Source: Escherichia phage vB_EcoM_phAPEC6. Taken from it: a stretch of 64,000 nucleotides of DNA. The DNA lies in the sequence record MK817115.1. One strand, 5' to 3'. A program made the translations under genes and the position numbers. Of this stretch, positions 29,864 through 58,646 are shown one piece after another. Numbering within the stretch: the stretch's first letter is position 1; the number at the start of each line of letters is the position of its first letter. The notes under the pieces were generated by a model. The model saw only the letters and a list, made by a program, of their open reading frames with translations, was not told the DNA's origin and made no database searches.

Positions 29864-30075
29864 AACTTTTCCTGTATAAGCTTCTTAAGTATTTCTATGT
29901 GTGAATTAACAGTTCTTTCTTGATGCTGTGTTCCTAAGAGTGTCAGTACTATCATCTCTGAACGCAAAAGATTTTTTTCAAGTTCACTTATATCAGTTCT
30001 TGAATCAAGTGCCATATATTTGTGATTATTCTTCCTGAATAGTGCCAAGTACTCTTGATTTGATATTTCCTTCAT
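29860..30075 (-). CDS. family B paralog
   Basis: ORF track 71 aa; motif LLGTQHQERTVNSHI. Confidence 0.65.
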   Translation of the reverse strand: MKEISNQEYLALFRKNNHKYMALDSRTDISELEKNLLRSEMIVLTLLGTQHQERTVNSHIEILKKLIQEKL

Positions 30076-30302
30076 AGTTTATTCCTGATGCCATTTAAAA
30101 GTGCTCTAATATGCTCATTGACAAATCGCTCTTGGGAATCTGTTCCTAGAGTGAGTAGCAATCTTAAATCTGAACTTTTGATGTGATATTCTAAATCATT
30201 CTTTGATTCTTGCATCAGTTTCTTAAAGGATGAGAAGTTTGCAGCCATTAGTTCAATGTATTCTGCTGTTCCTAGGGGTTTGTGTGTGTGCTGTCTGTGC
30301 AT
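30072..30302 (-). CDS. family B paralog
   Basis: ORF track 76 aa; motif TLGTDSQERFVNEHI. Confidence 0.65.
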   Translation of the reverse strand: MHRQHTHKPLGTAEYIELMAANFSSFKKLMQESKNDLEYHIKSSDLRLLLTLGTDSQERFVNEHIRALLNGIRNKL

Positions 30303-30514
30303 TTTAATTGTATTACCCTTTTGAGTGTATTAATGTAATTATACACATTGGCTTCTTGATAGTTTGTTCCTAGAGTAGCTTGAACGTAGATTTCATTTAA
30401 CTTAATAATTTTATCAGAATCTGGAAGTTTTGATGTGTTAATGGCAAATAACTTCGAAAACAGTCCATTTATGATTGTTAGGTATTCTACTTCGGTAATG
30501 ATTCGCATTTGCAT
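30272..30514 (-). CDS. family B paralog
   Basis: ORF track 80 aa; motif TLGTNYQEANVYNYI. Confidence 0.65.
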   Translation of the reverse strand: MQMRIITEVEYLTIINGLFSKLFAINTSKLPDSDKIIKLNEIYVQATLGTNYQEANVYNYINTLKRVIQLKCTDSTHTNP

Positions 30515-30726
30515 TGGATAAACCTTTTTAGTTCATTGATGTAATCATTAATATTGCATTCTTGATAGTTAGTCCCTAGTGTAGCTTGAACATAGATTTC
30601 ACTTACTAGAATACTTATTTCATCATCTGGTAATTTCATGCTTTTTGTTATAAACAGCTTTAGAATTAAACTACTTAATAGTTGGTTGTATTCTGTGGGT
30701 GAAATGATTTTCATTTGCATTTGCAT
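30487..30726 (-). CDS. family B paralog
   Basis: ORF track 79 aa; motif TLGTNYQECNINDYI. Confidence 0.65.
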   Translation of the reverse strand: MQMQMKIISPTEYNQLLSSLILKLFITKSMKLPDDEISILVSEIYVQATLGTNYQECNINDYINELKRFIQCKCESLPK

Positions 30727-30932
30727 TTTCTCAGTACTGATTCTTTAAGTTCATTAATGTAGCACTCTACATATTCTTCTTGTAGGTTTGTTCCGATATG
30801 TAACAGTACTCTTAAATCTGCTCTCAGTACTTCTTTATCATCTTCATCTATATCAGACAGTGTTATGTTTAAGAATTTACTTGAACTCTCTATAAGTAAT
30901 ATTACTGAATCACCTTTGCTTAAAATTTTCAT
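30711..30932 (-). CDS. family B paralog
   Basis: ORF track 73 aa; motif HIGTNLQEEYVECYI. Confidence 0.65.
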   Translation of the reverse strand: MKILSKGDSVILLIESSSKFLNITLSDIDEDDKEVLRADLRVLLHIGTNLQEEYVECYINELKESVLRKCKCK

Positions 30933-31140
30933 AATCTCTTTTTGCTTTCCTCGCCAAAAGGTACATATACGATTCTTCGTATTGTGCTTGGTAGTTTGTG
31001 TTTAAGAGTCGAAACAACTTCTGTTCTGCTAGAACGAGTTGCTTATCTTCATAACAACGATAGCGTATCAACTTTTTGTATTCGATGTTGATTACATCCA
31101 TTACTATAAGCCCATGTTCATCATCTGTCAAGTGTTTCAT
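30910..31140 (-). CDS. family B paralog
   Basis: ORF track 76 aa; motif LLNTNYQAQYEESYM. Confidence 0.6.
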   Translation of the reverse strand: MKHLTDDEHGLIVMDVINIEYKKLIRYRCYEDKQLVLAEQKLFRLLNTNYQAQYEESYMYLLARKAKRDYENFKQR

Positions 31141-31379
31141 GCATTTTTTCTTTTTCTTATATGTTTAGTTAAAAGGTATATTAGTTTTCTATTGTATTCT
31201 TCCTGATAGTTTGTTCCTAATAGTGCAAGAAGTTTTGCTTCAACTAAAGCTAATTGACGTTCTTCAAATGTGTGTTCCAGTATGTACTTGGGGTTTGATT
31301 TTTTAGCGTAAGCACTATTAGTCTTCATTACAATCTTATGATATTCATTAGCAGTTAGGATTTTTAAATACTTGATCAT
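31137..31379 (-). CDS. family B paralog
   Basis: ORF track 80 aa; motif LLGTNYQEEYNRKLI. Confidence 0.65.
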   Translation of the reverse strand: MIKYLKILTANEYHKIVMKTNSAYAKKSNPKYILEHTFEERQLALVEAKLLALLGTNYQEEYNRKLIYLLTKHIRKRKNA

Positions 31380-31599
31380 GTATCTTTTCCTTTATAGAGA
31401 ATTTAAGATATCGAAGCATACTTTCAATGTAATACTCTTGTCTGTCAGTGCCAAGAAAGTACATGAGTTGAATGTATAAAACTTCTGCACTCCTTTCCGC
31501 TGGAGACTTGTTTGTGTCGTTTGGAAGTTGATTTGTATGTTTTCTTGATTTAATTAGTCGTTCTTTTAACTCATCGTCTGTTAAGTATTTCATTTGCAT
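31348..31599 (-). CDS. family B paralog
   Basis: ORF track 83 aa; motif FLGTDRQEYYIESML. Confidence 0.65.
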   Translation of the reverse strand: MQMKYLTDDELKERLIKSRKHTNQLPNDTNKSPAERSAEVLYIQLMYFLGTDRQEYYIESMLRYLKFSIKEKIHDQVFKNPNC

Positions 31600-31825
31600 T
31601 TACTTTTTCCTTAATAGTGATTTTAAGATATCTAATCATACGTGCAACATATTCCTCTTGTCTATCAGTTCCCAGAAGATATGGTAGTGATTGGAATAAT
31701 ACTTCTGCACTCCTTTCTGCTGGGGTTTGGTTTAGGTCAATTGGACGTTTATTGGTATATCTCTTGGCACGAACTAATCTCTCGACGTATTCATTATAGG
31801 TTAAGTATATCATTTCATTTTGCAT
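31571..31825 (-). CDS. family B paralog
   Basis: ORF track 84 aa; motif LLGTDRQEEYVARMI. Confidence 0.65.
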   Translation of the reverse strand: MQNEMIYLTYNEYVERLVRAKRYTNKRPIDLNQTPAERSAEVLFQSLPYLLGTDRQEEYVARMIRYLKITIKEKVNANEILNRR

Positions 31826-32045
31826 TTACTTTTTCCTTAATACTCATTATAAGATGTTCAATCATATTTTGAACCATAAATTCTTGTTTATCAGTTCCAA
31901 GAACGTATGGTAGCTTCTGAAACAATACATTTGCAGATACTTCAGATATTGATTGATTTGGACCGAACTTAAGAGTAATGTTTTTGGTTTTTAACATCTT
32001 CTCTTGAAATTCTTCATTCGTTAAGTATATCATTTCATTTTGCAT
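31815..32045 (-). CDS. family B paralog
   Basis: ORF track 76 aa; motif VLGTDKQEFMVQNMI. Confidence 0.65.
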   Translation of the reverse strand: MQNEMIYLTNEEFQEKMLKTKNITLKFGPNQSISEVSANVLFQKLPYVLGTDKQEFMVQNMIEHLIMSIKEKVNAK

Positions 32046-32261
32046 TTACATTCTCTCATATATATTTTGGGTTAAAAGGTCAATCCAGATTTCCACATAT
32101 CGTTGTTGGTGTTGCGTCCCTAACAGTACACCCAACTTAGCTTCACACTCTAATAACAATCTGGTTTTGTATGGTAGACTTTGGAATCCTATAGTAGCAT
32201 CTAATTTGGTAATTGCATAGTTGATTCGGATGAATCTTTCTTGCAATGTGATGTTGATCAT
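32046..32261 (-). CDS. family B paralog
   Basis: ORF track 71 aa; motif LLGTQHQQRYVEIWI. Confidence 0.65.
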   Translation of the reverse strand: MINITLQERFIRINYAITKLDATIGFQSLPYKTRLLLECEAKLGVLLGTQHQQRYVEIWIDLLTQNIYERM

Positions 32262-32548
32262 TTCTTAGTACACCTCAGTGGTTGGGTCATTTGATGAAAG
32301 TACAGCTTACCTCTGATTTCCAGTAGCAACTCCGCGATTAAGCGATTTACTTCTGTATCTTGATAGTTTGTTCCTAAGAATACACCCATCTTTAACTCAC
32401 GCATCATAATCATTTTCTTACTGTGTTGAATTTCTGGGTTGTGATAGATTGTATTACGTTTGTGCGTAATTTTTGTCATACGCTCGGTATATTCATCTTT
32501 ACTTAAATTGATCATTTGCATGTTCATCAACCTCACATTTATTTTCAA
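32258..32548 (-). CDS. family B paralog
   Basis: ORF track 96 aa; motif FLGTNYQDTEVNRLI. Confidence 0.65.
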   Translation of the reverse strand: MKINVRLMNMQMINLSKDEYTERMTKITHKRNTIYHNPEIQHSKKMIMMRELKMGVFLGTNYQDTEVNRLIAELLLEIRGKLYFHQMTQPLRCTKK

Positions 32549-32550
32549 TA

Positions 32551-32817
32551 CTATTCTTTAGTTTGTAGATATAGTTTTCTTCCAATATATCTCTTAAGTG
32601 CGATTATGTATTCATCTACATAATACTCCTGATAGTTTGTTCCTATGAATGCACCCACCTTTAACTCAAGTTTCATAATCATCTTATTTCCGTGTTTAAT
32701 GACTTCTCCGTGATGGATTTCATTAAGTCCAGGTGCAATTTTTACCAGGCGTTCTTTATATTTTGCTTGAGATAATTTAATCATTTTCATGTTAATTACC
32801 CTTACATTTATTTTCAA
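32551..32817 (-). CDS. family B paralog
   Basis: ORF track 88 aa; motif FIGTNYQEYYVDEYI. Confidence 0.65.
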   Translation of the reverse strand: MKINVRVINMKMIKLSQAKYKERLVKIAPGLNEIHHGEVIKHGNKMIMKLELKVGAFIGTNYQEYYVDEYIIALKRYIGRKLYLQTKE

Positions 32818-33022
32818 TACTATTCATGAGTTCTATAAGATAGTTTTCTACCTTACCTTCCTGATAGTTAGTCCCTAGGAAGTTGCACAACACGGCTTCT
32901 ATGATTTTGATTTTCCTGATATCAGGCTTCAATCTTTTGTTATTGAATATTTGAATCCTTATATCTCTGGATGCATTTAAACGTTTTTGATATTCATGGT
33001 AAGTTAAATTAATCATTTTCAT
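32792..33022 (-). CDS. family B paralog
   Basis: ORF track 76 aa; motif FLGTNYQEGKVENYL. Confidence 0.65.
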   Translation of the reverse strand: MKMINLTYHEYQKRLNASRDIRIQIFNNKRLKPDIRKIKIIEAVLCNFLGTNYQEGKVENYLIELMNSIENKCKGN

Positions 33023-33237
33023 TTACGTTTAACCTCTCGCTGGAGGGCATCAATTAACATCAGTACAGCATTCTCTTGATAGTTTGTTCCTAAGACTGAA
33101 AGCATCTTTATCTCATTTACTAAAATCAACTTCTTTGAGGGTTCAATAATGTGACTATCATAAACGGCCTTACGTGCTGGATAAGTTTTCGCCAGTATAA
33201 CATAAAATTCGTCTTTACTTAAATTAATCATTTGCAT
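33019..33237 (-). CDS. family B paralog
   Basis: ORF track 72 aa; motif VLGTNYQENAVLMLI. Confidence 0.65.
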   Translation of the reverse strand: MQMINLSKDEFYVILAKTYPARKAVYDSHIIEPSKKLILVNEIKMLSVLGTNYQENAVLMLIDALQREVKRK

Positions 33238-33446
33238 TTACTTTTAACCTCTTTCTGTAGAGCGTCAATCCATAGATCCACATACATTTGTTGATAGTTT
33301 GTGCCTAAGAGTGCACCTACATAGAGTTCAGTTACTAGTGCGTGCTTAAGGTTAGCTTGGATGCTCTTATCGCTTGATAAGATTTTCCTTCTGCTGGTGC
33401 ATGTTTTCAGGAGTCTGATGTATTCAAAGCCTTGTAAATTTCTCAT
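33228..33446 (-). CDS. family B paralog
   Basis: ORF track 72 aa; motif LLGTNYQQMYVDLWI. Confidence 0.65.
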   Translation of the reverse strand: MRNLQGFEYIRLLKTCTSRRKILSSDKSIQANLKHALVTELYVGALLGTNYQQMYVDLWIDALQKEVKSKCK

Positions 33447-33658
33447 ATTTTGGATACCACCTTGTTACGTAAGGCACTTAACAATACGTCAGTGTAGATG
33501 TTTTGATAGTTTGTCCCTACGAAAGCACCCAACTTCATTTCAGCTATTATAACACATTTGTCCTCTTGTGCAATAGATTTGTTTAACACAATACTATACA
33601 CTTTTGATTTGATAGTTTGTAACCTCCAATGATACTGAAACTCATTTAGTGTTATCAT
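33443..33658 (-). CDS. family B paralog
   Basis: ORF track 71 aa; motif FVGTNYQNIYTDVLL. Confidence 0.65.
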   Translation of the reverse strand: MITLNEFQYHWRLQTIKSKVYSIVLNKSIAQEDKCVIIAEMKLGAFVGTNYQNIYTDVLLSALRNKVVSKI

Positions 33659-33893
33659 TCTCTCGTCTCCATATCTCGGTTCTAATGTGTTGACATTGTG
33701 CTTCGATGAACATATCTATTGATTTGGCAATTGCTTTTTTATCAGTGCCTGTCATCAGTACAAGCATCTCTGCCTCACTATGAATTAAACGCATGATATC
33801 ATAGGGTAATATTTCAGATACAGTGTCATAGTGTTTCTGTGCCAGTGTCTGTAATAGTTTACAATACATTTTGTGATTTAGTCTGTGTCGCAT
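33642..33893 (-). CDS. family B-like paralog (divergent)
   Basis: ORF track 83 aa; motif LMTGTDKKAIAKSID. Confidence 0.5.
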   Translation of the reverse strand: MRHRLNHKMYCKLLQTLAQKHYDTVSEILPYDIMRLIHSEAEMLVLMTGTDKKAIAKSIDMFIEAQCQHIRTEIWRRENDNTK

Positions 33894-34150
33894 TGTTTAT
33901 TCCATTCTCTTCTGGCTTGACGGGTTTTATCTGATATTTCGTTTCTCAATGCAGCGATATATCGTAGAGTGAACAGTTCTTGATAGTTAGTCCCTATGAA
34001 TTTATTAAGATATACATCAGCGTTGACGATATCAGCTTCACGGGAATTATAAAGTTTATTGTTCGTGCGGAGGGTGTTTAGAAGAGAGAAGAGGGCAGTC
34101 TGATACTCCACTCCTGATAAAATCTTCATGTTTTGTGAGCAAATAATCAT
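33878..34150 (-). CDS. family B paralog
   Basis: ORF track 90 aa; motif FIGTNYQELFTLRYI; start probably internal Met. Confidence 0.6.
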   Translation of the reverse strand: MIICSQNMKILSGVEYQTALFSLLNTLRTNNKLYNSREADIVNADVYLNKFIGTNYQELFTLRYIAALRNEISDKTRQARREWNKQCDTD

Positions 34151-34370
34151 CTAGTTTATCCTGTATAACATTCGTTAATTGTTCGATATATTCTGTGCAA
34201 AACTTATCTTGATATTGAGTCCCCATAAAGTACAGCAACCATAGCTCATTAACTTTAGCTCGCATTTGGTTCCATGTAAGGCTGGGGTCACCGTAGACTA
34301 TCCTTGTGATGGGGGTTAGTTTACGAATTATAGTTTCAAATTCATCATCAGTTAAGTGTTTCATTTGCAT
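34056..34370 (-). CDS. family B paralog (C-terminally extended)
   Basis: ORF track 104 aa; motif FMGTQYQDKFCTEYI; overlaps next gene. Confidence 0.55.
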   Translation of the reverse strand: MQMKHLTDDEFETIIRKLTPITRIVYGDPSLTWNQMRAKVNELWLLYFMGTQYQDKFCTEYIEQLTNVIQDKLDDYLLTKHEDFIRSGVSDCPLLSSKHPPHEQ

Positions 34371-34579
34371 TTGTCCCTTATTAAATCAGTGAGGGCAACT
34401 ATGTGTGCAACAACATACTCTTCCTGAAAGTTCGTCCCCAGTACAGCCATCATGCGTATATCGGTGGTGTTTATCCTGTGTTCCCTTACACATAAACCTT
34501 CTGTGTGAGGAAGTGTAAAATATTTGTTTATTGCAGCAACGATAATTTTATTCTTCTCGGAGTTACTTAAATGTTTCAT
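34361..34579 (-). CDS. family B paralog
   Basis: ORF track 72 aa; motif VLGTNFQEEYVVAHI. Confidence 0.65.
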   Translation of the reverse strand: MKHLSNSEKNKIIVAAINKYFTLPHTEGLCVREHRINTTDIRMMAVLGTNFQEEYVVAHIVALTDLIRDKCK

Positions 34580-34788
34580 AGTTTACTCCTGATATAATTC
34601 TGAAGTGCAATTAAGTATTCCCCTACATAATACACCTGAAAGTCTGTATCAAGGAATGCACCCATAAGTAAATCTTTTTCTAATACCCTTGATAAGTTAA
34701 GGTCTGCATTTGAAAGGTATATAAGTAAGATTTCACCCTGTGCGGAATTGAAACGTTTCTTATATTCTTCTGGTGTTAAAAAAATCAT
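34576..34788 (-). CDS. family B paralog
   Basis: ORF track 70 aa; motif FLDTDFQVYYVGEYL. Confidence 0.6.
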   Translation of the reverse strand: MIFLTPEEYKKRFNSAQGEILLIYLSNADLNLSRVLEKDLLMGAFLDTDFQVYYVGEYLIALQNYIRSKL

Positions 34789-35000
34789 AATTTGCTCCTG
34801 ATATATTTCTCAAGAGATGACAAATACTTTTCCTCATAATACTTCTGATAGTCTGTTCCTAAGAATGCACCCAATAGTATATCATTTTCCAATACCTCGG
34901 CTAAGTTTAAATCAGAAGTCTCTTCGTATATTATGAGGATTTCAAGTTGTCTGGCAGCGATGCGTTCAGTATATTGATATGAGTTTTCTATAATAATCAT
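34785..35000 (-). CDS. family B paralog
   Basis: ORF track 71 aa; motif FLGTDYQKYYEEKYL. Confidence 0.65.
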   Translation of the reverse strand: MIIIENSYQYTERIAARQLEILIIYEETSDLNLAEVLENDILLGAFLGTDYQKYYEEKYLSSLEKYIRSKL

Positions 35001-35206
35001 AATTTACTCTTTATATCTTGAATTAAAAATCGAATCCATTCTTCAACATAATCTTCCTGATGGTTTGTGTTCAGTACAGCCAACATGCGGATCTCTGCTC
35101 TTGCAACTTCAATTTCAGTTTTAGGAAGGTCTTTGCTGATATCCACCATTAAGTCCATGTATTTCAAGATAAGACCGTATGATTGGGTTCGTGTTATAGT
35201 TTTCAT
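34997..35206 (-). CDS. family B paralog
   Basis: ORF track 69 aa; motif VLNTNHQEDYVEEWI. Confidence 0.6.
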   Translation of the reverse strand: MKTITRTQSYGLILKYMDLMVDISKDLPKTEIEVARAEIRMLAVLNTNHQEDYVEEWIRFLIQDIKSKL

Positions 35207-35403
35207 TGTTTCCTCGTGGACAATATTTTATTTTTCAATGTATCCATATATTGAATCACCCATCTTTCCTGATAGTTAGTTCCCAAAGTAATCAAAAGGT
35301 ATAACTCCATTCGTTCTACGTGTGTGTCTGTATTATAAATCTTTGTGAAGTTTTTACGTAACAGTGATTGATATTCTTCTTTATTTAAAATACGCATTTT
35401 CAT
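35203..35403 (-). CDS. family B paralog
   Basis: ORF track 66 aa; motif TLGTNYQERWVIQYM. Confidence 0.65.
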   Translation of the reverse strand: MKMRILNKEEYQSLLRKNFTKIYNTDTHVERMELYLLITLGTNYQERWVIQYMDTLKNKILSTRKQ

Positions 35404-36948: not shown

Positions 36949-37153
36949 TTTGAATCTCCTAACTTTGTGGGCCGTCGCACCATTGCCGCCCTACGAGATA
37001 CATTATTGCAGTACTGATATACTTTGTCAATACTTTTTTATTAATAGTTTTAGTTCCACCAGCAGATAGTTACTCACCGTTATTAACTATATATTTTGGA
37101 TACACTCCTGCACCCAGTGGGCTAGTTTTTGTCTATGCGTATATAATAGCAAA

Positions 37154-37181
37154 GGGACTGACCGGAGTCAATCCCTTTTTT
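37154..37181. terminator. intrinsic terminator hairpin (conserved repeat-element copy 1)
   Basis: GGGACTGAC-cgga-GTCAATCCC followed by TTTTTT on plus; A-run on other side (bidirectional potential). Confidence 0.45.
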
Positions 37182-37192
37182 ATTCTTTTTTG

Positions 37193-39308: not shown

Positions 39309-39422
39309 TACTTTTTATCAAATACTTTAAAATAGTTTTCAGTACTGAATACTTATATAATAGATACACTTATGCACCCTGTGGGTCAGTGAGTTATCTC
39401 TCAATGAATATATATTAGCAAA

Positions 39423-39450
39423 GGGACTGACCGGAGTCAATCCCTTTTTT
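39423..39450. terminator. intrinsic terminator hairpin (conserved repeat-element copy 2)
   Basis: GGGACTGAC-cgga-GTCAATCCC + TTTTTT on plus; lies just downstream of kinase-like gene stop on minus. Confidence 0.45.
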
Positions 39451-39458
39451 AATCTTTT

Positions 39459-40043
39459 TTATCGTGTTATAGTTACGGCTTTTACATCACGCTTTTTATA
39501 GTACTGATTCCAGATATTGCGGGTTAAACCGTAATCAAGTACTTTAATAAGTCCATTACGATCCTGGCCGATATTCTGTTTTCTGATATCTCTTATCGTT
39601 AGTGTTGATAATGTATCATCGACGTGTTGTAGTGCATCAGCAAAGCGGTGCTGGCGTTCAATGGCATTACGTTTAATATTGTACTTTAATTCGTTGCACG
39701 CGTTAACGTGCTTCACACTGCCTTTACTTGCAGTACTCAACCGATCCATAACGATAAACATATTATCAGGATCGCATAAATGCATATGCACCTTTGCAAA
39801 GTACTGTTTCAATTGAGGGCGGTCATAGTCTAAAAAATTCCATACCTTACATTCAGTTTCATTTTGTTCTACACCCGCATCACAATTGGCGACCTTAATC
39901 ACTAACCGATCATTTAAAGCGAATACGATACGGGAAGAACCCGCCCCGATGATCTCCAGGCCAGCTAACCGACAAGCTGAAAGGATCTCTTTGTTGGTTT
40001 CCATTTCTGACAGTGTACGGATGAATTTAGTATAATTACGCAT
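39459..40043 (-). CDS. putative Ser/Thr protein kinase-like protein
   Basis: ORF track 39459..40100, start moved to Met behind SD AAGGAG; Gly-rich loop IGAGSSRIVF, VIKV lysine, catalytic-loop-like RDIRKQNIG, DYG (DFG-like) motif. Confidence 0.5.
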   Translation of the reverse strand: MRNYTKFIRTLSEMETNKEILSACRLAGLEIIGAGSSRIVFALNDRLVIKVANCDAGVEQNETECKVWNFLDYDRPQLKQYFAKVHMHLCDPDNMFIVMDRLSTASKGSVKHVNACNELKYNIKRNAIERQHRFADALQHVDDTLSTLTIRDIRKQNIGQDRNGLIKVLDYGLTRNIWNQYYKKRDVKAVTITR

Positions 40044-40074
40044 TGCATGTTCTCCTTGAGTTAATGAAACTATC

Positions 40075-40317
40075 TTACAGTACTTTACTATCAATGGCAA
40101 CCACTTTTTTCACACTAACCGCGTGAATCACTTCCTTAGTGTTTTTAGTACTGAATACTTTCGCTGTTCCTTGTTCTACTGCAATGCGATAACGACCGTT
40201 AACATCAACCATATTAATAAAGTCCGGTGTACTAAACCGAGTAGTACGGCATTTCAGTACTGTTAACAATTCCACCAGCGATGTAGTTTCTTTGATACGT
40301 TTTTCTAAAGTAATCAT
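40075..40317 (-). CDS. hypothetical protein (80 aa)
   Basis: ORF track; promoter TTGACA-N17-TACTAT upstream. Confidence 0.6.
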   Translation of the reverse strand: MITLEKRIKETTSLVELLTVLKCRTTRFSTPDFINMVDVNGRYRIAVEQGTAKVFSTKNTKEVIHAVSVKKVVAIDSKVL

Positions 40318-42441: not shown

Positions 42442-42507
42442 TTTGTATTCCTCTTTGTGGTTGATGTAAGTATTATACTCGTTTAATTTCTATTGTCAAA
42501 CTATTTT

Positions 42508-42581
42508 ATCAGGGGAGGTTTTCGTATGTCTTACTCCTGGACTACTTAACGGGGTTACTTATTTCGTTCCCCGTCCTGATG
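42508..42581 (-). ncRNA. conserved structured 5' leader element, copy 1
   Basis: ~75 nt between two sigma70-like promoters; closing stem ATCAGG/CCTGAT with two internal hairpins; near-identical copy at 52314-52389, diverged copy near 49351-49421. Confidence 0.35.
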
Positions 42582-42726
42582 TAAAACATTATACTTGATT
42601 CTAAGTACAATGCAAGTACTTTTTAAAAATAGTTTTCAGTACTTGATAGTACTAGCCACCAGCATATAATAGATACATTTATGCACCCTGTGGGTTAGAT
42701 TGTTTCTATGCATATATAATAGCAAA

Positions 42727-42754
42727 GGGACTGACCGGAGTCAATCCCTTTTTT
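42727..42754. terminator. intrinsic terminator hairpin (conserved repeat-element copy 3)
   Basis: GGGACTGAC-cgga-GTCAATCCC + TTTTTT. Confidence 0.45.
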
Positions 42755-42762
42755 AAATCTTT

Positions 42763-42912
42763 TTAAACTTGTTTTGGGTTGCGATATGTGATAGCGTTCG
42801 GGTACATTTGTTTAATGTTATTCCATGCCTGGTTAACATTGTAACCACTTGATCGAATCAGTTGGTTACTTCCTACGCCCTGAAACACTACTTCGAATAA
42901 GAATTCTTTCAT
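42763..42912 (-). CDS. small protein (49 aa), hypothetical
   Basis: own reading: MKEFLFEVVFQGVGSNQLIRSSGYNV...; ATGA overlap with upstream ORF; below track cutoff. Confidence 0.35.
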   Translation of the reverse strand: MKEFLFEVVFQGVGSNQLIRSSGYNVNQAWNNIKQMYPNAITYRNPKQV

Positions 42913-43079
42913 GCTGCAATCCCCTCTGATTTACCTTTACGCCAGGCGTTAGCCAGTTCATTACGTTGCCATACATCCAATGCAATGTATAGTTTAGCAG
43001 TATCCCCTTTAGGGTATTCGCCAGTAGTGCCTAACCGATAAAACAGATCTTTCAGTACTGATAATTCTACTTGGATCAT
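42909..43079 (-). CDS. small protein (56 aa), hypothetical
   Basis: own reading: MIQVELSVLKDLFYRLGTTGEYPKGD...; ATGA overlaps both neighbours. Confidence 0.35.
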   Translation of the reverse strand: MIQVELSVLKDLFYRLGTTGEYPKGDTAKLYIALDVWQRNELANAWRKGKSEGIAA

Positions 43080-43168
43080 TGTATTACTCCTGATTGTGTT
43101 AGTACTTCTACGATGGCATGAATGATCATAAGTACAGCTAACACAACAATCATCGGATTCATTTGCAT
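43076..43168 (-). CDS. hydrophobic micro-protein (30 aa), putative membrane peptide
   Basis: own reading: MQMNPMIVVLAVLMIIHAIVEVLTQSGVIQ; SD GAAGGAG 8 nt upstream. Confidence 0.35.
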   Translation of the reverse strand: MQMNPMIVVLAVLMIIHAIVEVLTQSGVIQ

Positions 43169-43185
43169 AAGCTGTACTCCTTCTA

Positions 43186-43398
43186 TTAATCTTTCAGCCA
43201 ATGATCTTGAATGAATTTTTCACAGAATCCCTGTTTCATAGATTCTAACAGGCGTTCACGGTGAGCGGCGGCATATTGCTCAGTACTATGCGTTACGCCA
43301 GGTTGATAACGTGAAACACCGTCCGGTCCGATATATTGAACATCCCACGGTTTTTCGTTAGTATCAGACCATTTACGAACGATTAGTTGACCTTGCAT
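43186..43398 (-). CDS. hypothetical protein (70 aa)
   Basis: ORF track; SD AGAGGAA. Confidence 0.6.
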   Translation of the reverse strand: MQGQLIVRKWSDTNEKPWDVQYIGPDGVSRYQPGVTHSTEQYAAAHRERLLESMKQGFCEKFIQDHWLKD

Positions 43399-43415
43399 GT
43401 TTCTTTCCTCTTAGT

Positions 43416-43476
43416 GGGGAGAATCATTTCTCCCCTTCATGTAAACTATTATACAGTACTATAATCTATTGTCCAG
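43416..43476 (-). promoter_or_regulatory. early-type promoter + 5' GC hairpin cassette (PeSL-like)
   Basis: TGGACA-N16-TATAAT then hairpin GGGGAGAA-tcat-TTCTCCCC. Confidence 0.55.
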
Positions 43477-43483
43477 TACTTTT

Positions 43484-43672
43484 TTACAGTTTATGAATCA
43501 ATTCTTTATCTAAGCGATAGCGTACATTATTAATGGTAACAGCATTATTTTTAATGCTACGCTGTACTGGCCCACCAGCAATAACAAACGTTGCTTTATT
43601 ACCCCGAACAATGATAGCACTACCAGGATTGCCAAAATCATCTTGTACTAAAATACTTGATAAGTTTTCCAT
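43484..43672 (-). CDS. hypothetical protein (~62 aa)
   Basis: ORF track 43484..43678; start moved 2 codons to Met behind SD AGAGGAA. Confidence 0.55.
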   Translation of the reverse strand: MENLSSILVQDDFGNPGSAIIVRGNKATFVIAGGPVQRSIKNNAVTINNVRYRLDKELIHKL

Positions 43673-43750
43673 TTTCATTTCCTCTTAGTAGGGGAAGACG
43701 TTTCCCCTTGATGTAAGTACTATAACAGTACTGGAAACTAAATGCAAGTA

Positions 43751-44107
43751 CTACGATAAAATCATGATAGGATATTCACTATCGATCAGTACTTCAAATC
43801 CAAAACTTTCATACCATTCTTTAAGATTAAAGGCGTTATCTTCTCCCGTATCGCATTCTAAAATGATACAATCTGAATCATCGGCGGCATCAATAAAGGC
43901 GTTCATCAATTCCGTACCTTCACCATTACCCCGACTAGCAGGATCAACATAAAGAGAATCAATAAACGCTACACGGTCATAATCAAGATCCGGTGCAATG
44001 ATTCCACGTTTAACAAACCAGTACTGCAATTGTGCTACTTTGCCCTGTACTTGATAGCCAGTGATCTCGCCATTGTCAGTAGTACGCGTGGTATGTTGTA
44101 TTCCCAT
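43751..44107 (-). CDS. GNAT-family N-acetyltransferase-like protein
   Basis: ORF track 118 aa; acetyl-CoA-binding-like RGNGEGTELM and C-terminal WYESFGFE resembling GNAT motifs A/B. Confidence 0.45.
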   Translation of the reverse strand: MGIQHTTRTTDNGEITGYQVQGKVAQLQYWFVKRGIIAPDLDYDRVAFIDSLYVDPASRGNGEGTELMNAFIDAADDSDCIILECDTGEDNAFNLKEWYESFGFEVLIDSEYPIMILS

Positions 44108-44170
44108 GATTTCTATCCTCAGTTAAGATATAAAATATTATACACTATCTTTCAGTACTGTCAATACTTT

Positions 44171-44428
44171 TTATCTCATAGATCTATGCCAACAATTACG
44201 CGGATCTCTTTTAAAAGTACTATCATGATCCTCCTGGCAAGTTATGCAATACTTACATCCCTTAACAGCCTGGCGGCGATTCTCAGGGATTTTATCGCCA
44301 CAGTCGAGGCAATGTATCAGTGATTCTATTTGTGCGTTAATTTGCTTTCTAGCGTGGTTTACGGCGGCCTGAATCACTGCGTTAATCTCGTCTTGCTCGG
44401 CCCCGTCTTTCGCGAATCCTACAGCCAT
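44171..44428 (-). CDS. TraR/DksA-type C4 zinc-finger protein
   Basis: ORF track 85 aa; CLDCGDKIPENRRQAVKGCKYCITCQ (CxxC-N17-CxxC, as in TraR/DksA family). Confidence 0.45.
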   Translation of the reverse strand: MAVGFAKDGAEQDEINAVIQAAVNHARKQINAQIESLIHCLDCGDKIPENRRQAVKGCKYCITCQEDHDSTFKRDPRNCWHRSMR

Positions 44429-44625
44429 TATTTTAACTTTTTTCTGTCATTGATTAATGCTTTCAGTACTATACTAATGATTTGCAATGATTCATCAATA
44501 ACTATAAAATTATTTTCTTTCATTAGATGATAGTTACCATTGATATTATATTCTAACGAGTACTGTTTACGTTTAATTTTTGATAATGTTTCTATTTGTT
44601 TTTGTACTGATTTCATGCTAATCAT
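44428..44625 (-). CDS. hypothetical protein (65 aa)
   Basis: ORF track; translationally coupled to downstream gene (TAATG). Confidence 0.55.
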   Translation of the reverse strand: MISMKSVQKQIETLSKIKRKQYSLEYNINGNYHLMKENNFIVIDESLQIISIVLKALINDRKKLK

Positions 44626-44730
44626 TGTTAAACGTCCTGTAACGCATTCTAACGAGATAAACGGTTTAGTACTGGCATTGTATAGGGTAATGGATTAAAG
44701 CCCACCAGCGTTAACCAGTGGGCTATAATC

Positions 44731-44874
44731 TTACATCTTGCGGATAATCTTAACAGTATCTTTCACCGATTTACCGTTTTGCTGACATTGTTCGATCATC
44801 GCGTATTGTTCTGCGGTCAGATCCTCGCCAGTTTTTGCCAGTACTGCATCGATGAATGAATCTAGTGCGATCAT
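44731..44874 (-). CDS. small protein (47 aa), hypothetical
   Basis: own reading: MIALDSFIDAVLAKTGEDLTAEQYAMIEQCQQNGK...; own promoter TTGACA-N16-TATAAT upstream. Confidence 0.35.
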   Translation of the reverse strand: MIALDSFIDAVLAKTGEDLTAEQYAMIEQCQQNGKSVKDTVKIIRKM

Positions 44875-44973
44875 TTTGTTTCTCTCTTAGGTTAAGTTAA
44901 CTACTGTTTATAAAACTTATTATACAGTACTATCAAACTATGTCAATATCTTTAATAGTACTGGTAATATATT

Positions 44974-45153
44974 TTAGCGGTAGTCGTCGTATGCTTTATT
45001 CACCTGGCGAATGTAACTTTCAAAGGCTTCGTCTACCGTTTCATACTCCCGAACATAATCACCATAGGAAACTACATACATCCCTTTTTGATCTTCAAAC
45101 GTCATGATGATAGAATCCAGGCCGATGATTTCAGTTTTTGCGATGATAGCCAT
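44974..45153 (-). CDS. small protein (59 aa), hypothetical
   Basis: own reading: MAIIAKTEIIGLDSIIMTFEDQKGMYVV...; SD AGGAA; own promoter TTGACA-N16-TATAAT. Confidence 0.4.
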   Translation of the reverse strand: MAIIAKTEIIGLDSIIMTFEDQKGMYVVSYGDYVREYETVDEAFESYIRQVNKAYDDYR

Positions 45154-45234
45154 TTTTAATTCCTTAGTAGTGTAGTTGATAAAACTTATTATACAGTACT
45201 ATCAAACTATGTCAATAGTACTGTGATAATATTT

Positions 45235-45447
45235 TTAGTTAATGATAGTCAGTGTAAAATTGTAATCCCCTGCCTGGTATAGTACTTTGTCGCCGAACGT
45301 ACCAACACGTTTCATATTGCAATAGATACCCATAACACTTTTTACATCTTTGATATTCCGAACGCCTGTGATATCCTTGTTGAAATTTTCATGATCAGAA
45401 AATAAAACTTGTTTTGCATTTTTCAGTACAGTGCAGATATTAGCCAT
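45235..45447 (-). CDS. hypothetical protein (70 aa)
   Basis: ORF track; SD AGAGAA. Confidence 0.6.
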   Translation of the reverse strand: MANICTVLKNAKQVLFSDHENFNKDITGVRNIKDVKSVMGIYCNMKRVGTFGDKVLYQAGDYNFTLTIIN

Positions 45448-45467
45448 TTTGATTTCTCTTTGTTAGT

Positions 45468-45527
45468 GGGGAGAACTATTCTCCCCTTGATGTAACTTAT
45501 TATACAGTACTATAATCTATTGTCAAA
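45468..45527 (-). promoter_or_regulatory. early-type promoter + 5' GC hairpin cassette (PeSL-like)
   Basis: TTGACA-N16-TATAAT then hairpin GGGGAGAA-cta-TTCTCCCC. Confidence 0.55.
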
Positions 45528-45540
45528 CTATTTTTTAATA

Positions 45541-45882
45541 TTATTCAAAATCTTCTGGACCGGACTGATAATCATCTTCACCGTATGCACTTTCTAACTT
45601 CTCGCCAGTGTGATCATCAGTTAGTGAGTCATCCTCATAGTTCACGTCTACGCCCGTGATGTAAAACTGGCTATCGTCTGGATCATTGAAATTAATTTTC
45701 TGAATGTTTACAATAACGGTATTGATGCCCAGGACACCGCCATCAGCAGTTACAAAGTACTGATAGTTTTCACAACCGCCTGTATTGAAACCGTAATTAA
45801 TTTCGGCCCGACCATCATTTAAACGCAGTGCCTGGGCGATGATTTCGTTTTCAAAGTTAGATTGAGCAATTGAGATAGTCAT
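45541..45882 (-). CDS. hypothetical protein (~113 aa)
   Basis: ORF track 45541..45945; start moved to MTISIAQS Met downstream of hairpin. Confidence 0.55.
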   Translation of the reverse strand: MTISIAQSNFENEIIAQALRLNDGRAEINYGFNTGGCENYQYFVTADGGVLGINTVIVNIQKINFNDPDDSQFYITGVDVNYEDDSLTDDHTGEKLESAYGEDDYQSGPEDFE

Positions 45883-46065
45883 GATTCGTTTCCTTATTAC
45901 CAGGGGAAACCGTTTCCCCTCTCGATGTAAAACATTATACGCCAATTGAGATAGTTTGCAAGTACTTTTTAAAAATAGTTTTCAGTACTCAATACTTATA
46001 TAATAGATACACTTATGCACCCGGTGGGCTAGTGAGCTATCTCTCAATGAATATATAATAGCAAA

Positions 46066-46094
46066 ATGGCTGACCGAAGTCAACCACTTTTTTC
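46066..46094. terminator. intrinsic terminator hairpin (conserved repeat-element copy 4, diverged)
   Basis: TGGCTGAC-cgaa-GTCAACCA + TTTTTT. Confidence 0.4.
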
Positions 46095-46096
46095 AT

Positions 46097-46231
46097 TTAT
46101 TTTTTAGCTTTCAGTACTGCCGCCTTTCGCGTCATGCCTTGCTTAATGTACTCCTTTACTTTCGCTTTACGTGCTTTCGCTTTATCTGCTTTCGTTTTAG
46201 GAGTACTGTAAATTAAACCGTTAGGATTCAT
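46097..46231 (-). CDS. small basic protein (44 aa), hypothetical
   Basis: own reading: MNPNGLIYSTPKTKADKAKARKAKVKEY... Confidence 0.3.
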   Translation of the reverse strand: MNPNGLIYSTPKTKADKAKARKAKVKEYIKQGMTRKAAVLKAKK

Positions 46232-46321
46232 TTAAATCACCATAAAGAATAGATAGGTTACTAACAATGCCGCGATCAATGCACCGATCACCGCTGAACT
46301 GTAATAAGCTAATGATTTCAT
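46232..46321 (-). CDS. hydrophobic micro-protein (29 aa), putative membrane peptide
   Basis: own reading: MKSLAYYSSAVIGALIAALLVTYLFFMVI; ATGA overlap with upstream gene stop. Confidence 0.3.
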   Translation of the reverse strand: MKSLAYYSSAVIGALIAALLVTYLFFMVI

Positions 46322-46500
46322 TTTTTAGCCTGGAAGTAATGTTTAATTTGTGCGGCGGTCAGTGCACAATTACGCAGGAAGTTTTCTGTATAACTGCGGC
46401 GAGTACTGAAAGAGAATTGACCTTTGCCGTTACCGATAGTAACATCAAACCGAGCGTTGTATTGTTTCATTTTGTTTCTCCTGTTATTGGGGAGAATCAT
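46318..46500 (-). CDS. hypothetical protein (60 aa)
   Basis: ORF track; SD AGGAG. Confidence 0.6.
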   Translation of the reverse strand: MILPNNRRNKMKQYNARFDVTIGNGKGQFSFSTRRSYTENFLRNCALTAAQIKHYFQAKK

Positions 46501-46549
46501 TTCTCCCCTTCATGTAAAACATTATACAGTACTAAAAACTAATTGCAAG
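46489..46549 (-). promoter_or_regulatory. early-type promoter + 5' GC hairpin cassette (PeSL-like)
   Basis: TTGCAA-N16-TATAAT then hairpin GGGGAGAA-tcat-TTCTCCCC. Confidence 0.55.
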
Positions 46550-46551
46550 TA

Positions 46552-46698
46552 CTATTTTTTAGATTTACGCAAACTTTCTACCATCTCAGGAGTAAGGCCA
46601 GGCGGGTAGGAAACCACTTCATCAACGAAACGTAAAGGGAATACCCCAGCGAAAGGTGAACATGCTTTCTTAGTATTACTCTTTTTTGATGCTTTCAT
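46552..46698 (-). CDS. small protein (48 aa), hypothetical
   Basis: own reading: MKASKKSNTKKACSPFAGVFPLRFVDEV...; preceded by promoter + hairpin GGAGAGAAtcatTTCTCCCC. Confidence 0.35.
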   Translation of the reverse strand: MKASKKSNTKKACSPFAGVFPLRFVDEVVSYPPGLTPEMVESLRKSKK

Positions 46699-50522: not shown

Positions 50523-50551
50523 TTGACAAGTGCATCCAGTACTGGCATAAT
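50523..50551 (+). promoter_or_regulatory. plus-strand sigma70-like promoter (antisense orientation)
   Basis: TTGACA-N17-CATAAT on plus strand; no plus ORF downstream. Confidence 0.4.
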
Positions 50552-50621
50552 TACTACATCAAGACGAAACAGTCACTAACCCACCGGGTGCCGAGATCCG
50601 TCTATTAAATGATTCAGTACT

Positions 50622-52245: not shown

Positions 52246-52313
52246 TTTGTAACCCTCATTCAGTAGTTTATGTAAGTATTATACGCTTTTAAAAACAATT
52301 GTCAAACTATTTT

Positions 52314-52389
52314 ATCAGGGGAGTTTTTCGTGTGCCTTACTCCTGGGCTACTTAACGGGAAGTTACTTATTTCGTTCCCCGTCCTGATG
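52314..52389 (-). ncRNA. conserved structured 5' leader element, copy 2
   Basis: near-identical to 42508-42581 with some differences falling in predicted stems; flanked by promoters TTGCAA..TATAAT and TTGACA-N16-TATAAT. Confidence 0.35.
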
Positions 52390-52467
52390 TAAAACATTAT
52401 ACGCCTTTAAACATAGTTTGCAAGTACTTTTTAAAAATAGTTTTCAGTACTGAATAGTAAAAAGGTA

Positions 52468-52496
52468 TTGACAGCACTATCCAGTACTGGTATAAT
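52468..52496 (+). promoter_or_regulatory. plus-strand consensus sigma70 promoter (antisense orientation)
   Basis: perfect TTGACA-N17-TATAAT on plus strand; no plus ORF follows. Confidence 0.45.
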
Positions 52497-52670
52497 ATAC
52501 CCCATGACAACAGCTAACCCACCGGGTGCACAATTGTAACTGTACTAAACTACTTTTTCTATAGATACACTCCCGCACCCTATGGGCTACGGCTTATCTG
52601 CCAATGAATACATTATGCCAGTACTGACAAAATAAGTCAATACCGGCAATTGTAAAGATTTGTAAACTAC

Positions 52671-54397: not shown

Positions 54398-54425
54398 TTG
54401 ACTCAGTACAGAAAAAGCGTATAAT
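54398..54425 (+). promoter_or_regulatory. plus-strand sigma70-like promoter
   Basis: TTGACT-N16-TATAAT on plus. Confidence 0.4.
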
Positions 54426-54612
54426 TACTATATAGACGCGAGAAAGCGGAAACCCCAGAGGGTGCGGAATTACGCCCAAAATTCAAGATATAAAAAAAGG
54501 ATACACTCCCGCACCCTAGCAGGTAAACGCACTTTCTCAGTACTGAAATATAGTACCATAGTCCGGCCCAGGATAGCAAGCAAATTAATTAAAACTTTTT
54601 TCATCCAGGGTA

Positions 54613-54640
54613 TTGCTTTATTTTTCCAGTACTGTATAAT
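54613..54640 (+). promoter_or_regulatory. plus-strand sigma70-like promoter
   Basis: TTGCTT-N16-TATAAT on plus, followed by CCCACCGGGTG motif. Confidence 0.4.
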
Positions 54641-54860
54641 AGTTCCATCAAGTCGAGAAAGACTCAAGCCCACCGGGTGCATAGTTACGCCCAAAATTCA
54701 GTACTAGATTATTTTTTAAAAATATTCATCCAGGCGGTTGACATTGCCCCCAGTTTATAAGATAATGATTCCAGATTCAGAAAAATCTAACTCCAGATAC
54801 TGCGGGGAAACTATCCCCACGCGGTAGGGGAACTATTGGAAAAAACAAAATAAAATTTTG

Positions 54861-55000
54861 ATTTAGCCGTCTATACTTCCAGACGTGTAACCATCTAGCC
54901 GTTTAGCCGTCCAAACGTCTAGCCATCCAGCCCTCCAGAAATCTAGCCGTTTAGCCGTCTAGATGGATAGCCATCTTTACTTCCAGACTTCTGGAGGGCT
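54861..55000. repeat. iteron-like cluster of short direct repeats with flanking inverted repeat
   Basis: TAGCCGT occurs at least five times and TAGCCAT twice within ~110 bp; inverted repeat GCCCTCCAGAA ... TTCTGGAGGGC; direct repeat ACTTCCAGAC x2. Confidence 0.6.
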
Positions 55001-55860
55001 AGACATATCTACGTCCAAAATCCACCCAGGGTAACTACGCCCAAAATCCGTCAGTACTATACCATAGATCTATCTTTTGAAAGGGAGTATTCAGTACTGC
55101 CATCATAGCCCTCACTATGTTACCCTAGGAGGATGAAGACTATCATGTAGTACTGAATACTGTTAGAGGGAATCCACCAGCACAAGCTGGTGGCATAATG
55201 CTTTAGATTAAAATCAGTACTGACACCATTCTGTTAATATCAGTACTGTTATTACGATTTTCATATGAGGTTCAAAAAGATGTACCACCACAGGAGGAAC
55301 TATCTTTTCTGTACTGTCTCACGACAGGAGGTAGAGTAAATGAATTGTTCGCAGCAACTCATCACCCTATGTAGAACATTATACAGTACTGAATCATAAT
55401 GTCAATAGCTTTCTTTCATTATTCAGTACTGATATTCTTGAGAACTACCCGACTACAAACATCATTATATCCCACAAATCATAAACGTCCCAACGTAAAT
55501 TTCAACTTTCGAAGATCCAACTTTTATTTCATAGGTACTCCAAAATTTTTAGGATCGAGATTTAGGATGGAGTACTAACCAACTTTTTGCTGGAGCCTCA
55601 AGGGGTAATGGAATTTTACCCCGAAGGGTAAAGGGGTAATTGAAATTAAGGTGAAAGTAATAATTCAGTACTAATCATTGCGTGATTACTTTTGATTACA
55701 TTTGATGTAATTTGAAAAATGGAAAAGGAGCTTGGAAACTACAAAGTACGGCAGACTTCCTCTGCCTACTTAGTGGCATATCAGTACTGAATCCTTCCCG
55801 TGCATTCTTGAGCATTCTTGTCTATACTAATCAGTACTGAATCATATATAATCATTCTGT

Positions 55861-56240: not shown

Positions 56241-56423
56241 TTAATATGATAGTACTAGTGTTAGTACTGAGCACAATTGTTCTTTATAGTTCTTAGGGTA
56301 TATAGAATCTTTTATGCACTCATTGAAGTGCCATAGGTATAATCTTGGGTCGCATTCTTTATATATTCTTACGGGGACGAATGTTAGTTTTCTTATATAG
56401 AATTCTTTATGTTCTTTATTCAT
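56241..56423 (-). CDS. family C paralog
   Basis: ORF track 60 aa; MNKEHKEFYIRKL... Confidence 0.6.
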   Translation of the reverse strand: MNKEHKEFYIRKLTFVPVRIYKECDPRLYLWHFNECIKDSIYPKNYKEQLCSVLTLVLSY

Positions 56424-56424
56424 A

Positions 56425-56815: not shown

Positions 56816-56820
56816 ATTAG

Positions 56821-57006: not shown

Positions 57007-57007
57007 A

Positions 57008-57193: not shown

Positions 57194-57202
57194 ATTGTTC
57201 TT

Positions 57203-57391: not shown

Positions 57392-57392
57392 A

Positions 57393-57575: not shown

Positions 57576-57576
57576 A

Positions 57577-57762: not shown

Positions 57763-57771
57763 ATATTATCC

Positions 57772-58636: not shown

Positions 58637-58646
58637 TTGGTTTCCT

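Follow-up and report, generated by a model that had tools for sequence, protein, structure and literature searches.

What is encoded by the very short open reading frames (ORFs) at 42763-43168 and 46097-46321 of a 64,000-nucleotide (nt) stretch of Escherichia phage vB_EcoM_phAPEC6 (record MK817115.1; the whole stretch is referred to here as the window), and are the two hydrophobic peptides of about 30 amino acids (aa) predicted among their products the toxins of type I toxin/antisense-RNA modules? A preliminary description of this DNA had read three ATGA-overlapping ORFs of 49, 56, and 30 aa in the first interval and a basic 44-aa ORF paired with a hydrophobic 29-aa ORF in the second, had placed both groups next to copies of a repeated element with a terminator for the opposite strand, and had pointed to the resemblance of this layout to such modules. 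Both groups of ORFs were found as described, on the minus strand, which carries every gene of the stretch occupied by the two operons to which they belong. The reading that we favor, with a probability of about 0.7, is that they are genuine early genes of Asteriusvirus arranged in polycistronic, translationally coupled operons, that the two membrane peptides serve as accessory effectors, and that the repeat is a terminator/promoter cassette that shares the strand of the genes. The toxin/antisense-RNA idea is not supported by the comparisons reported below and can be dropped.

Coding status and layout of the two operons

The window is Asteriusvirus DNA, from an Escherichia coli jumbo phage of the 121Q/PBECO4 type, a group with genomes of ~350 kb. 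A megablast search with 42500-46600 against a phage collection returned 90 records, headed by E. coli and Salmonella Asteriusvirus genomes (SHEFM2K, UB, PBECO4, G17, and 121Q), and the region is 89 to 98% identical to its counterparts in 121Q, PBECO4, G17, and others, where the micro-ORFs are mostly listed as coding sequences; operon 1 is 98.5% identical to that of 121Q, and operon 2 is 97% identical to that of SHEFM2K. The same genes occur in identical order and with identical overlaps in 121Q (gp297 to gp300, of which gp298 is the 30-aa gene, and gp286 to gp287), G17 (G17_00020-23 and 00032-33), PBECO4, and SHEFM2K, in each case as hypothetical proteins. SHEFM2K calls every micro-ORF, including that of 29 aa (M2K_0177-79 and 0192-94), which is uncalled in 121Q and has no coding sequence listed at its position in G17. 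The label "unannotated" therefore holds only with respect to the 60-aa cutoff that had been applied to the window, since most of these ORFs are listed as hypothetical proteins in relatives.

Conservation of the reading frames in relatives had been named beforehand as a test of coding status, and the frames proved to be open and under purifying selection. Both operons were extracted from nine relatives and aligned, and synonymous and nonsynonymous differences were compared by one-sided Fisher tests. Variable sites at codon positions 1, 2, and 3 numbered 15, 8, and 30 in the 56-aa gene (p = 3e-6), 14, 10, and 30 in the 49-aa gene (p = 2e-5), and 9, 8, and 24 in the 44-aa gene (p = 9e-6); the corresponding counts for the membrane peptides were 15, 8, and 20 (30 aa; p = 0.005 to 0.015) and 4, 1, and 8 (29 aa; p = 0.018). 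Across the micro-ORFs the ratio of nonsynonymous to synonymous differences (pN/pS) was ~0.1 to 0.5, and no frame-breaking change was seen among the genomes compared, the "unverified" record of CMSTMSU (MH494197) aside. In that record the 70-, 56-, 50-, and 44-aa homologues carry frameshifts, which are likely sequencing errors that make it unfit as evidence of gene loss.

For the 29-aa peptide, tblastn found the frame intact in 34 of 34 Asteriusvirus records, with conservative changes only (K2R, S3T, V11L, I12V, and T22A) and an in-frame 6-nt deletion as the sole indel. For the 30-aa frame the number of Asteriusvirus records is 21, and 14 of 35 related records are without it; in phages A4 and Turkey5 a version only 48 to 52% identical (MHMNPFIVVIAIIMAVQAVLVYLSKAGVI) retains the length and the hydrophobic pattern at a pS of ~0.6 and a pN of ~0.3. 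Both peptides have the appearance of single-pass membrane peptides, as had been proposed, with best 17-residue Kyte-Doolittle windows of 2.89 (30 aa) and 2.54 (29 aa). Hydrophobicity alone is not above chance, as 15 of 393 small ATG-initiated ORFs in the window score 2.3 or more, most of them out of frame inside genes; it is conservation that is decisive for coding status. Full-length matches to PHROG families, all of unknown function, were obtained for the 70-, 56-, 49-, 50-, and 44-aa proteins (E, 6e-35 to 7e-28), and the two membrane peptides gave no significant match in the same collection.

The extents first assigned to the two groups were correct for the ORFs themselves but too short for the transcription units, both groups being the distal parts of longer operons headed by a 70-aa and a 50-aa gene (Table 1). 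Operon 1 runs from its promoter through a 5' stem-loop, the 70-aa gene, the 30-aa membrane peptide, and the 56- and 49-aa genes to a hairpin. The 70-aa gene has a pN/pS of ~0.1 to 0.2, and RaK2 ORF348 is its syntenic homologue; after a gap of 17 nt it is followed by the 30-aa gene, whose ATG has the strong Shine-Dalgarno sequence noted earlier (GAAGGAG, 8 nt upstream). Translational coupling, also proposed at the outset, is borne out by the junctions, which are ATGA overlaps or, between the 29- and 44-aa genes, TAAATG.

We suggest that host sigma70 RNA polymerase would start at the consensus promoter of each operon, traverse the short 5' stem-loop, and produce a polycistronic mRNA of three to four genes that ends at the UNCG-tetraloop hairpin. 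Ribosomes would load at consensus sites and then pass from gene to gene by way of the overlapping or abutting stop and start codons, so that the products of an operon would be made together, and each operon would thus supply one peptide of 29 to 30 residues, with a single hydrophobic helix predicted to enter the host inner membrane.

Early expression is suggested by the genomic setting as well as by the promoters. The locus lies inside the direct terminal repeat wherever the ends of relatives have been mapped (G17, vB_Ec-M-J, Muenster, and CBB): the annotation "Direct Terminal Repeats" underlies the matched stretch in vB_Ec-M-J, G17, JP4, and others have two matching places in each record, and the terminal repeat spans 1-20030 in Klebsiella phage Muenster and 1-22456 in Pectobacterium phage CBB. 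In CBB, a Rak2-like phage, RpoD-like promoters with UP elements are reported to precede short hypothetical proteins, and this region has been read as one of early host takeover (PMC5259590). Rfam yielded no family over the whole window at the gathering threshold and only chance-level matches on 42450-43250 at E <= 10, and a scan for transfer RNA and transfer-messenger RNA genes found none. On this comparative evidence the ORFs are real and conserved genes, small, probably early, and quite ordinary for a phage group that is already known.

Table 1. Features of the two operons and of the adjoining repeat (window coordinates)
Feature	Coordinates	Strand	Remarks
Operon 1, sigma70-type early promoter	43448-43475	-	TGGACA-16-TATAAT; score 11/12
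Operon 1, G/C-rich 5' stem-loop	43416-43435	-	GGGGAGAAATGATTCTCCCC; between promoter and ribosome-binding site; repeat families D1, D6, D7, D10
Operon 1, 70-aa gene (first)	43186-43398	-	phrog_13428, unknown function
Operon 1, 30-aa membrane peptide gene	43076-43168	-	MQMNPMIVVLAVLMIIHAIVEVLTQSGVIQ; cistron 2 of 4
Operon 1, 56-aa gene	42909-43079	-	phrog_10572; ATGA 43079-43076 shared with stop of 30-aa gene; ribosome-binding site AGGAG
Operon 1, 49-aa gene	42763-42912	-	phrog_37188; ATGA 42912-42909 shared with 56-aa gene; ribosome-binding site GAGGGG
Operon 1, putative terminator hairpin	42724-42751	-	12-bp stem, UCCG loop; includes -35 (TTGACT) of sense promoter-like site
Repeat core after operon 1	42640-42723	-	-10 TGcTATTAT, short variable hairpin, then CTAACCCACAGGGTGCATAAATGTATCTATTAT; outside peptide genes
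Operon 2, sigma70-type early promoter	46521-46548	-	TTGCAA-16-TATAAT
Operon 2, 5' stem-loop	46489-46508	-	GGGGAGAAATGATTCTCCCC
Operon 2, 50-aa gene (first)	46318-46470	-	phrog_7119; homologues also in rV5-like phages
Operon 2, 29-aa membrane peptide gene	46232-46321	-	MKSLAYYSSAVIGALIAALLVTYLFFMVI; ATGA 46321-46318 shared with stop of 50-aa gene; cistron 2 of 3
Operon 2, 44-aa highly basic protein gene	46097-46231	-	phrog_29913; start abuts 29-aa stop (TAAATG); ribosome-binding site GGTGAT
Operon 2, putative terminator hairpin	46063-46090	-	UUCG loop
Promoter-leader unit, same orientation	42640-42760, 45985-46095, 39335-39455, 37085-37190
Promoter-leader unit, inverted	near 50525-50600, 52469-52540, 54398-54470, 54611-54690

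The downstream repeat and the antisense-RNA proposal

Both ORF groups do adjoin copies of a repeated element, which lies downstream of each operon and is present in at least four copies in the same orientation (at 37.1, 39.4, 42.7, and 46.0 kb) and four inverted ones. The noncoding unit occurs eight to nine times in the window, where chance alone would give 0.7, and consists of a sigma70-like promoter (TTGACT/A-17-TATTAT/TATAAT) followed after ~17 to 27 nt by CTA(A/G)CCCACNGGGTGC(A)TAAGTGTATCTAT. Its nucleotide identity is 71 to 80% in RaK2, Muenster, RCIP0023, EJP2, and the Salmonella phage Munch, where the neighboring 56-aa proteins are 39 to 60% identical; this promoter-leader element, better conserved across genera than the proteins that it adjoins, is more unusual than the peptide genes. 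In IMG/VR the motif is multicopy only in Rak2-like jumbo phage contigs. The unit is found in either orientation relative to genes, its core has no significant RNA fold on either strand (z, approximately -0.7), and it could be an operator or a leader element. Because the 39.4-kb copy follows a gene for a 213-aa protein (39459-40100), the element marks the ends of operons rather than hydrophobic peptides.

The strand on which the hairpin at the repeat acts was addressed by aligning 17 copies that represent five lineages of phages. In 16 of the 17 copies, one stem position is a U·G pair that would be a C·A mismatch in an antisense RNA; a second alternates between G-C and G·U, two to three positions covary, and the UNCG tetraloop (UCCG or UUCG) exists on the gene strand only. 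Predicted folding energies agree, at -19.5 kcal/mol in the sense and -13.4 kcal/mol in the antisense orientation for operon 1 and at -15.9 and -6.4 kcal/mol, respectively, for operon 2 (antisense z = -1.35), and the G17 equivalents are annotated as minus-strand terminators (ARNold). The shared hairpin is thus a sense-strand structure. TTGAC in its 5' arm and TATTAT 17 nt downstream are invariant on the gene strand, and a Munch copy in which the hairpin is missing altogether still has both, which suggests that a sense-strand promoter overlaps the terminator. The earlier identification of an opposite-strand terminator at the repeat stands insofar as a T6 tract is present on the plus strand, but the hairpin itself is the stronger on the gene strand.

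Had the layout been that of a type I module, the peptides would be membrane toxins, and a convergent plus-strand RNA, started in the repeat and ended at the shared hairpin, would repress their mRNAs. Toxin and antitoxin RNAs that converge on a common terminator do exist, as in par of pAD1 and txpA/RatA. The window peptides resemble the type I toxins Hok/Gef, Ldr, Ibs, TisB, ShoB, Fst, and TxpA (Fozo et al. 2010, PMC2887945) in having fewer than 60 aa and one hydrophobic helix, a likeness of size and shape of which toxicity itself forms no part, and in lying near a hairpin that is usable from both strands and has a canonical plus-strand T6 tract; 80 nt upstream of that tract, one repeat copy also has a plus-strand TTGATA-16-TATAAT. 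This promoter-like site (42643-42670), the only good one for the plus strand beside the repeat, loses its -35 hexamer in the copies at 46.0, 39.3, and 37.1 kb (a 12-bp difference), however, so that no antisense promoter is conserved, and the antisense fold of the 46-kb hairpin is the weak one given above. The overlap of a repeat-derived plus-strand RNA with the mRNA would be confined to the 3' untranslated end, ~330 nt (operon 1) and ~140 nt (operon 2) away from the peptide ORFs. The repeat also follows the gene for the 213-aa protein, which is no small peptide, and the peptide genes are internal, coupled cistrons of polycistronic mRNAs with consensus promoters rather than stand-alone, repressed messages, the consensus ribosome-binding site of the 30-aa gene being exposed and not sequestered. 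Searches for type I toxin families (Hok, Ldr, Ibs, TisB, ShoB, Fst, and others) gave no match in Pfam at E <= 1 or in NCBIfam at E <= 10, and in a virulent phage postsegregational or addiction logic has no obvious role. Taken together, these points make a toxin/antisense-RNA module highly improbable here.

A further plus-strand promoter-like site, inside the 56-aa gene (42966-42993), was rejected as a chance match: its -10 hexamer is destroyed in seven of nine relatives, and the scan that detected it found 9 sites against 4 ± 2 in shuffled sequence.

Several additional features of the repeat and its surroundings were recorded. PHANOTATE calls ORFs of 29 to 33 aa inside the repeat (SHEFM2K M2K_0169, 0176, and 0191; window 42636-42725 and 45982-46083), which have "HRVHKCIYY" in common only because the conserved DNA motif translates to it. 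The calls are probably spurious, as variation ignores codon position and the upstream frame is shifted by an indel of 8 nt. At 52469-52650 two units face each other, with TTGACA-17-TATAAT on the plus strand (52469-52497) and TTGACT-17-CATAAT on the minus strand (~52640-52612); each promoter reads into its own copy of the motif, and the predicted transcripts overlap by ~100 nt. A conserved, ORF-free segment of ~70 nt lies between two tandem early promoters on the minus strand, at 42500-42582 and again at 52308-52392. Its copies are near identical by direct reading (the adjacent repeat family, D9, is 87% identical), each folds as a closed two-hairpin structure at approximately -19 kcal/mol (z = -2.3), and the segment could function as a structured leader or small RNA. 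Just past the last promoter units, 54868-55019 contains at least ~9 units of an 8-nt periodic repeat (CGTCTAGC and CATCCAGC variants; family D16), and diverged direct-repeat arrays at 29880-35290, 16640-18700, and 56400-59870, with spacings of ~215, ~450, and ~190 to 390 nt (families D8, D15, D11 to D13, D17, and D20), are probably tandem paralogous small genes.

Conservation beyond the genus and possible roles of the peptides

The 56-aa protein has homologues in 67 phage records across the Rak2-like genera, and the DNA upstream of these homologues was inspected for eight records, including RaK2 and Muenster. In these two Klebsiella phages (Alcyoneusvirus), in which the 56-aa homologue is 56 to 58% identical, an unannotated hydrophobic ORF of 27 aa (MYMPIIIPLAVLLIAAVICEQYHLLGM) with a GGGAG ribosome-binding site lies between the homologues of the 70- and 56-aa genes, as in the window (RaK2, JQ513383, ~238543-238626, between ORF348 and ORF349; Muenster, between genes 032 and 033). 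Its product is 41 to 44% identical to the window 30-aa peptide; M1, P5, I7, A11, and G27 are invariant in the family alignment, an acidic residue is retained late in the helix, and the LAVL block shared by the window and RaK2-Muenster peptides is encoded with synonymous codon differences (GCT/GCA and CTT/CTG) when the DNA is read directly. The peptide was not found upstream of the 56-aa homologue in CBB, fHe-Yen9-03, Serratia BF, Munch, or EJP2; the first four have a promoter directly before that homologue, and in EJP2 another gene abuts it. GAP32 is also listed as being without the peptide, although its upstream sequence was not read. Since the peptide is present in RaK2 and Muenster and absent from the other Rak2-like phages just listed, the 30-aa gene is an accessory gene common to Asteriusvirus and Alcyoneusvirus. 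It defines a new family of membrane microproteins that is missing from PHROGs, from Pfam, and from the RaK2 and Muenster annotations.

Gain and loss of this gene among close relatives are seen to break at promoter/stem-loop cassettes of the kind described in the next section. In A4 and Turkey5 such a cassette is inserted before the peptide gene, and in ECO103, UE-S1, and CMSTMSU a cassette stands in place of the 30-aa gene; recombination at cassettes would thus have left some relatives without the gene and provided others with a new promoter for it. A search of IMG/VR for loci with relatives of the 56-aa protein recovered nothing besides 121Q. The two membrane peptides were also considered as possible paralogues, and this was rejected, as BLASTP gives no alignment between them. 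In Klebsiella phage RCIP0023 a hydrophobic ORF of 38 to 51 aa follows the 50-aa homologue (1050-1166 of the extracted stretch), with TTGA start and ATGA stop overlaps and the early-promoter consensus TTGACT-17-TATCAT in the same stretch; given that consensus, it is no more than a candidate positional analogue of the 29-aa gene.

It could be argued that the two hydrophobic frames are spacer or relay ORFs that pass ribosomes onward and whose sequence is irrelevant. The frames are very short, AT-rich DNA readily yields short hydrophobic ORFs, the 29-aa ORF, with its weak ribosome-binding site, relies on the ATGA overlap, and the 30-aa ORF is dispensable, as its absence from 14 of the 35 related records indicates. 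Such an arrangement would leave unexplained the excess of synonymous changes and the fact that orthologues only 41 to 52% identical keep the length, P5, the hydrophobic core, and a glycine near the C terminus. The peptide gene of A4 and Turkey5, moreover, has its own promoter, stem-loop, and ribosome-binding site, none of which a mere relay needs, and we regard this explanation as improbable. A somewhat better case, though still an unlikely one, can be made for stand-alone membrane-damaging effectors, toxic without an antitoxin, that cause depolarization, host shutoff, or the timing of lysis. Polar or charged residues inside the helix are a feature of oligomerizing, pore-forming peptides, and the 30-aa peptide has two of them (H17 and E21, the glutamate being conserved in RaK2); strong early promoters would drive expression. 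Searches revealed no resemblance to holins or known toxins, however, and a constitutively depolarizing peptide would presumably cut the energy needed for the long replication cycle of a 350-kb phage. The sequence is equally compatible with a regulatory-subunit role and does not separate the two.

In the reading that we prefer, in which the peptides are accessory effectors made from early operons, they would act early and be dispensable, and they would most likely dock onto a host membrane protein and change its activity; exclusion of superinfecting phages and direct perturbation of the membrane are the alternatives. In the 30-aa peptide the N terminus is uncharged, His17 and Glu21 fall within a helix of ~18 residues, and the tail is short and polar, with a terminal Lys in most relatives. 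In the 29-aa peptide the helix comes after Lys2 and extends to the C terminus. Bacterial peptides of this size and shape, such as AcrZ, MgrB, KdpF, and MgtS, are usually small subunits or inhibitors of larger membrane proteins, and the likeness (~30 residues and a single helix) extends to the NCBIfam family NF033695 (KPN_01571, a 30-aa transporter-adjacent peptide). A more specific proposal, which we consider speculative and rather doubtful, is that the 30-aa family (27 to 30 aa) is a phage regulatory subunit for a specific host inner-membrane transporter or sensor, perhaps one that imitates the 30-aa transporter-adjacent peptides, and that the TTGACT-17-TATTAT element with CCCACNGGGTGC is an undescribed regulatory device of Rak2-like phages. 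The neighboring soluble products offered no hint of function: PADLOC defense models gave no match to any of the seven proteins, a PDB sequence search gave none for the 56- and 50-aa proteins, and AlphaFold2 modeled the 56-aa protein (nine sequences) as a two-helix hairpin at low confidence (predicted local distance difference test score [pLDDT], 68).

Some results weigh against the interpretation of the ORFs as coupled early genes for membrane effectors and of the repeat as a same-strand cassette. The p values of ~0.005 to 0.02 give modest statistical support for two such short ORFs, and the ribosome-binding site of the 29-aa ORF is weak. The cleaner T tract of the hairpins (T6) is that of the plus strand, which leaves room for some bidirectional termination. 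The peptides have no significant family match in Pfam or NCBIfam searches: NF033695, the best match in these libraries for the 30-aa peptide, scores 17.4 bits (E = 0.0026) with the window peptide and 15.3 bits (E = 0.012) with that of A4, far below the curated cutoff of 35 bits, and the similarity may be compositional. A phmmer search against 1.84 billion representatives recovered only the peptide's own cluster, and any target named for the peptide is therefore a guess.

Relationship to promoter-early stem-loop cassettes and other systems

The repeat next to the two operons appears, from its sequence, to be a composite terminator/promoter cassette on the gene strand, with putative activity in both respects, and it belongs to a landscape of similar arrangements. 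Between 36 and 55 kb one promoter cassette is repeated at least 19 times (families D1 to D7, with D1 to D10 for the composite as a whole); in it an AT-rich tract precedes a sigma70-consensus promoter, and a G/C stem-loop and a ribosome-binding site follow. The promoters score 10 to 12 of 12, and the stem-loops, read directly, have the form GGGGAGAA...TTCTCCCC. Promoter-early stem-loop (PeSL) cassettes, which flank ORFan genes, have been described in T4-type phages, with subclasses in which the stem-loop overlaps the -35 hexamer or follows the -10 hexamer (Arbiol et al. 2010, PMC2839356; Comeau et al. 2014, PMC4122927). The window cassettes are likewise intergenic, with a strong sigma70-like promoter, an AT-rich upstream tract, and a stable G/C stem-loop, after the -10 or over the -35, ahead of the ribosome-binding site and ATG; they form dense repeats in a plastic region of small genes without known function, and indels among close relatives break at them. 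They differ in that the lineage is that of the Rak2-like jumbo phages and not Tquatrovirinae, in that the sequences are unrelated to the RB49 and phi1 PeSLs as far as these were compared, and in that one class has an extra conserved leader of ~60 nt (CCCACNGGGTGC...), which has not been described for PeSLs.

Nothing in the finding of the peptides themselves would surprise a phage biologist, but it illustrates that a 60-aa cutoff hides real genes in the early regions of jumbo phages. Inhibitors of host functions have often been found among small early phage proteins, and it would be reasonable to include the two membrane peptides in expression screens.

The position of the genes recalls phage T5, whose pre-early genes sit in its terminal repeats. 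We know of no two-step DNA entry in Rak2-like phages, and T5 and the window have no sequence relationship, but in both small genes of probable host takeover lie within a direct terminal repeat, where they would be read by the host RNA polymerase.

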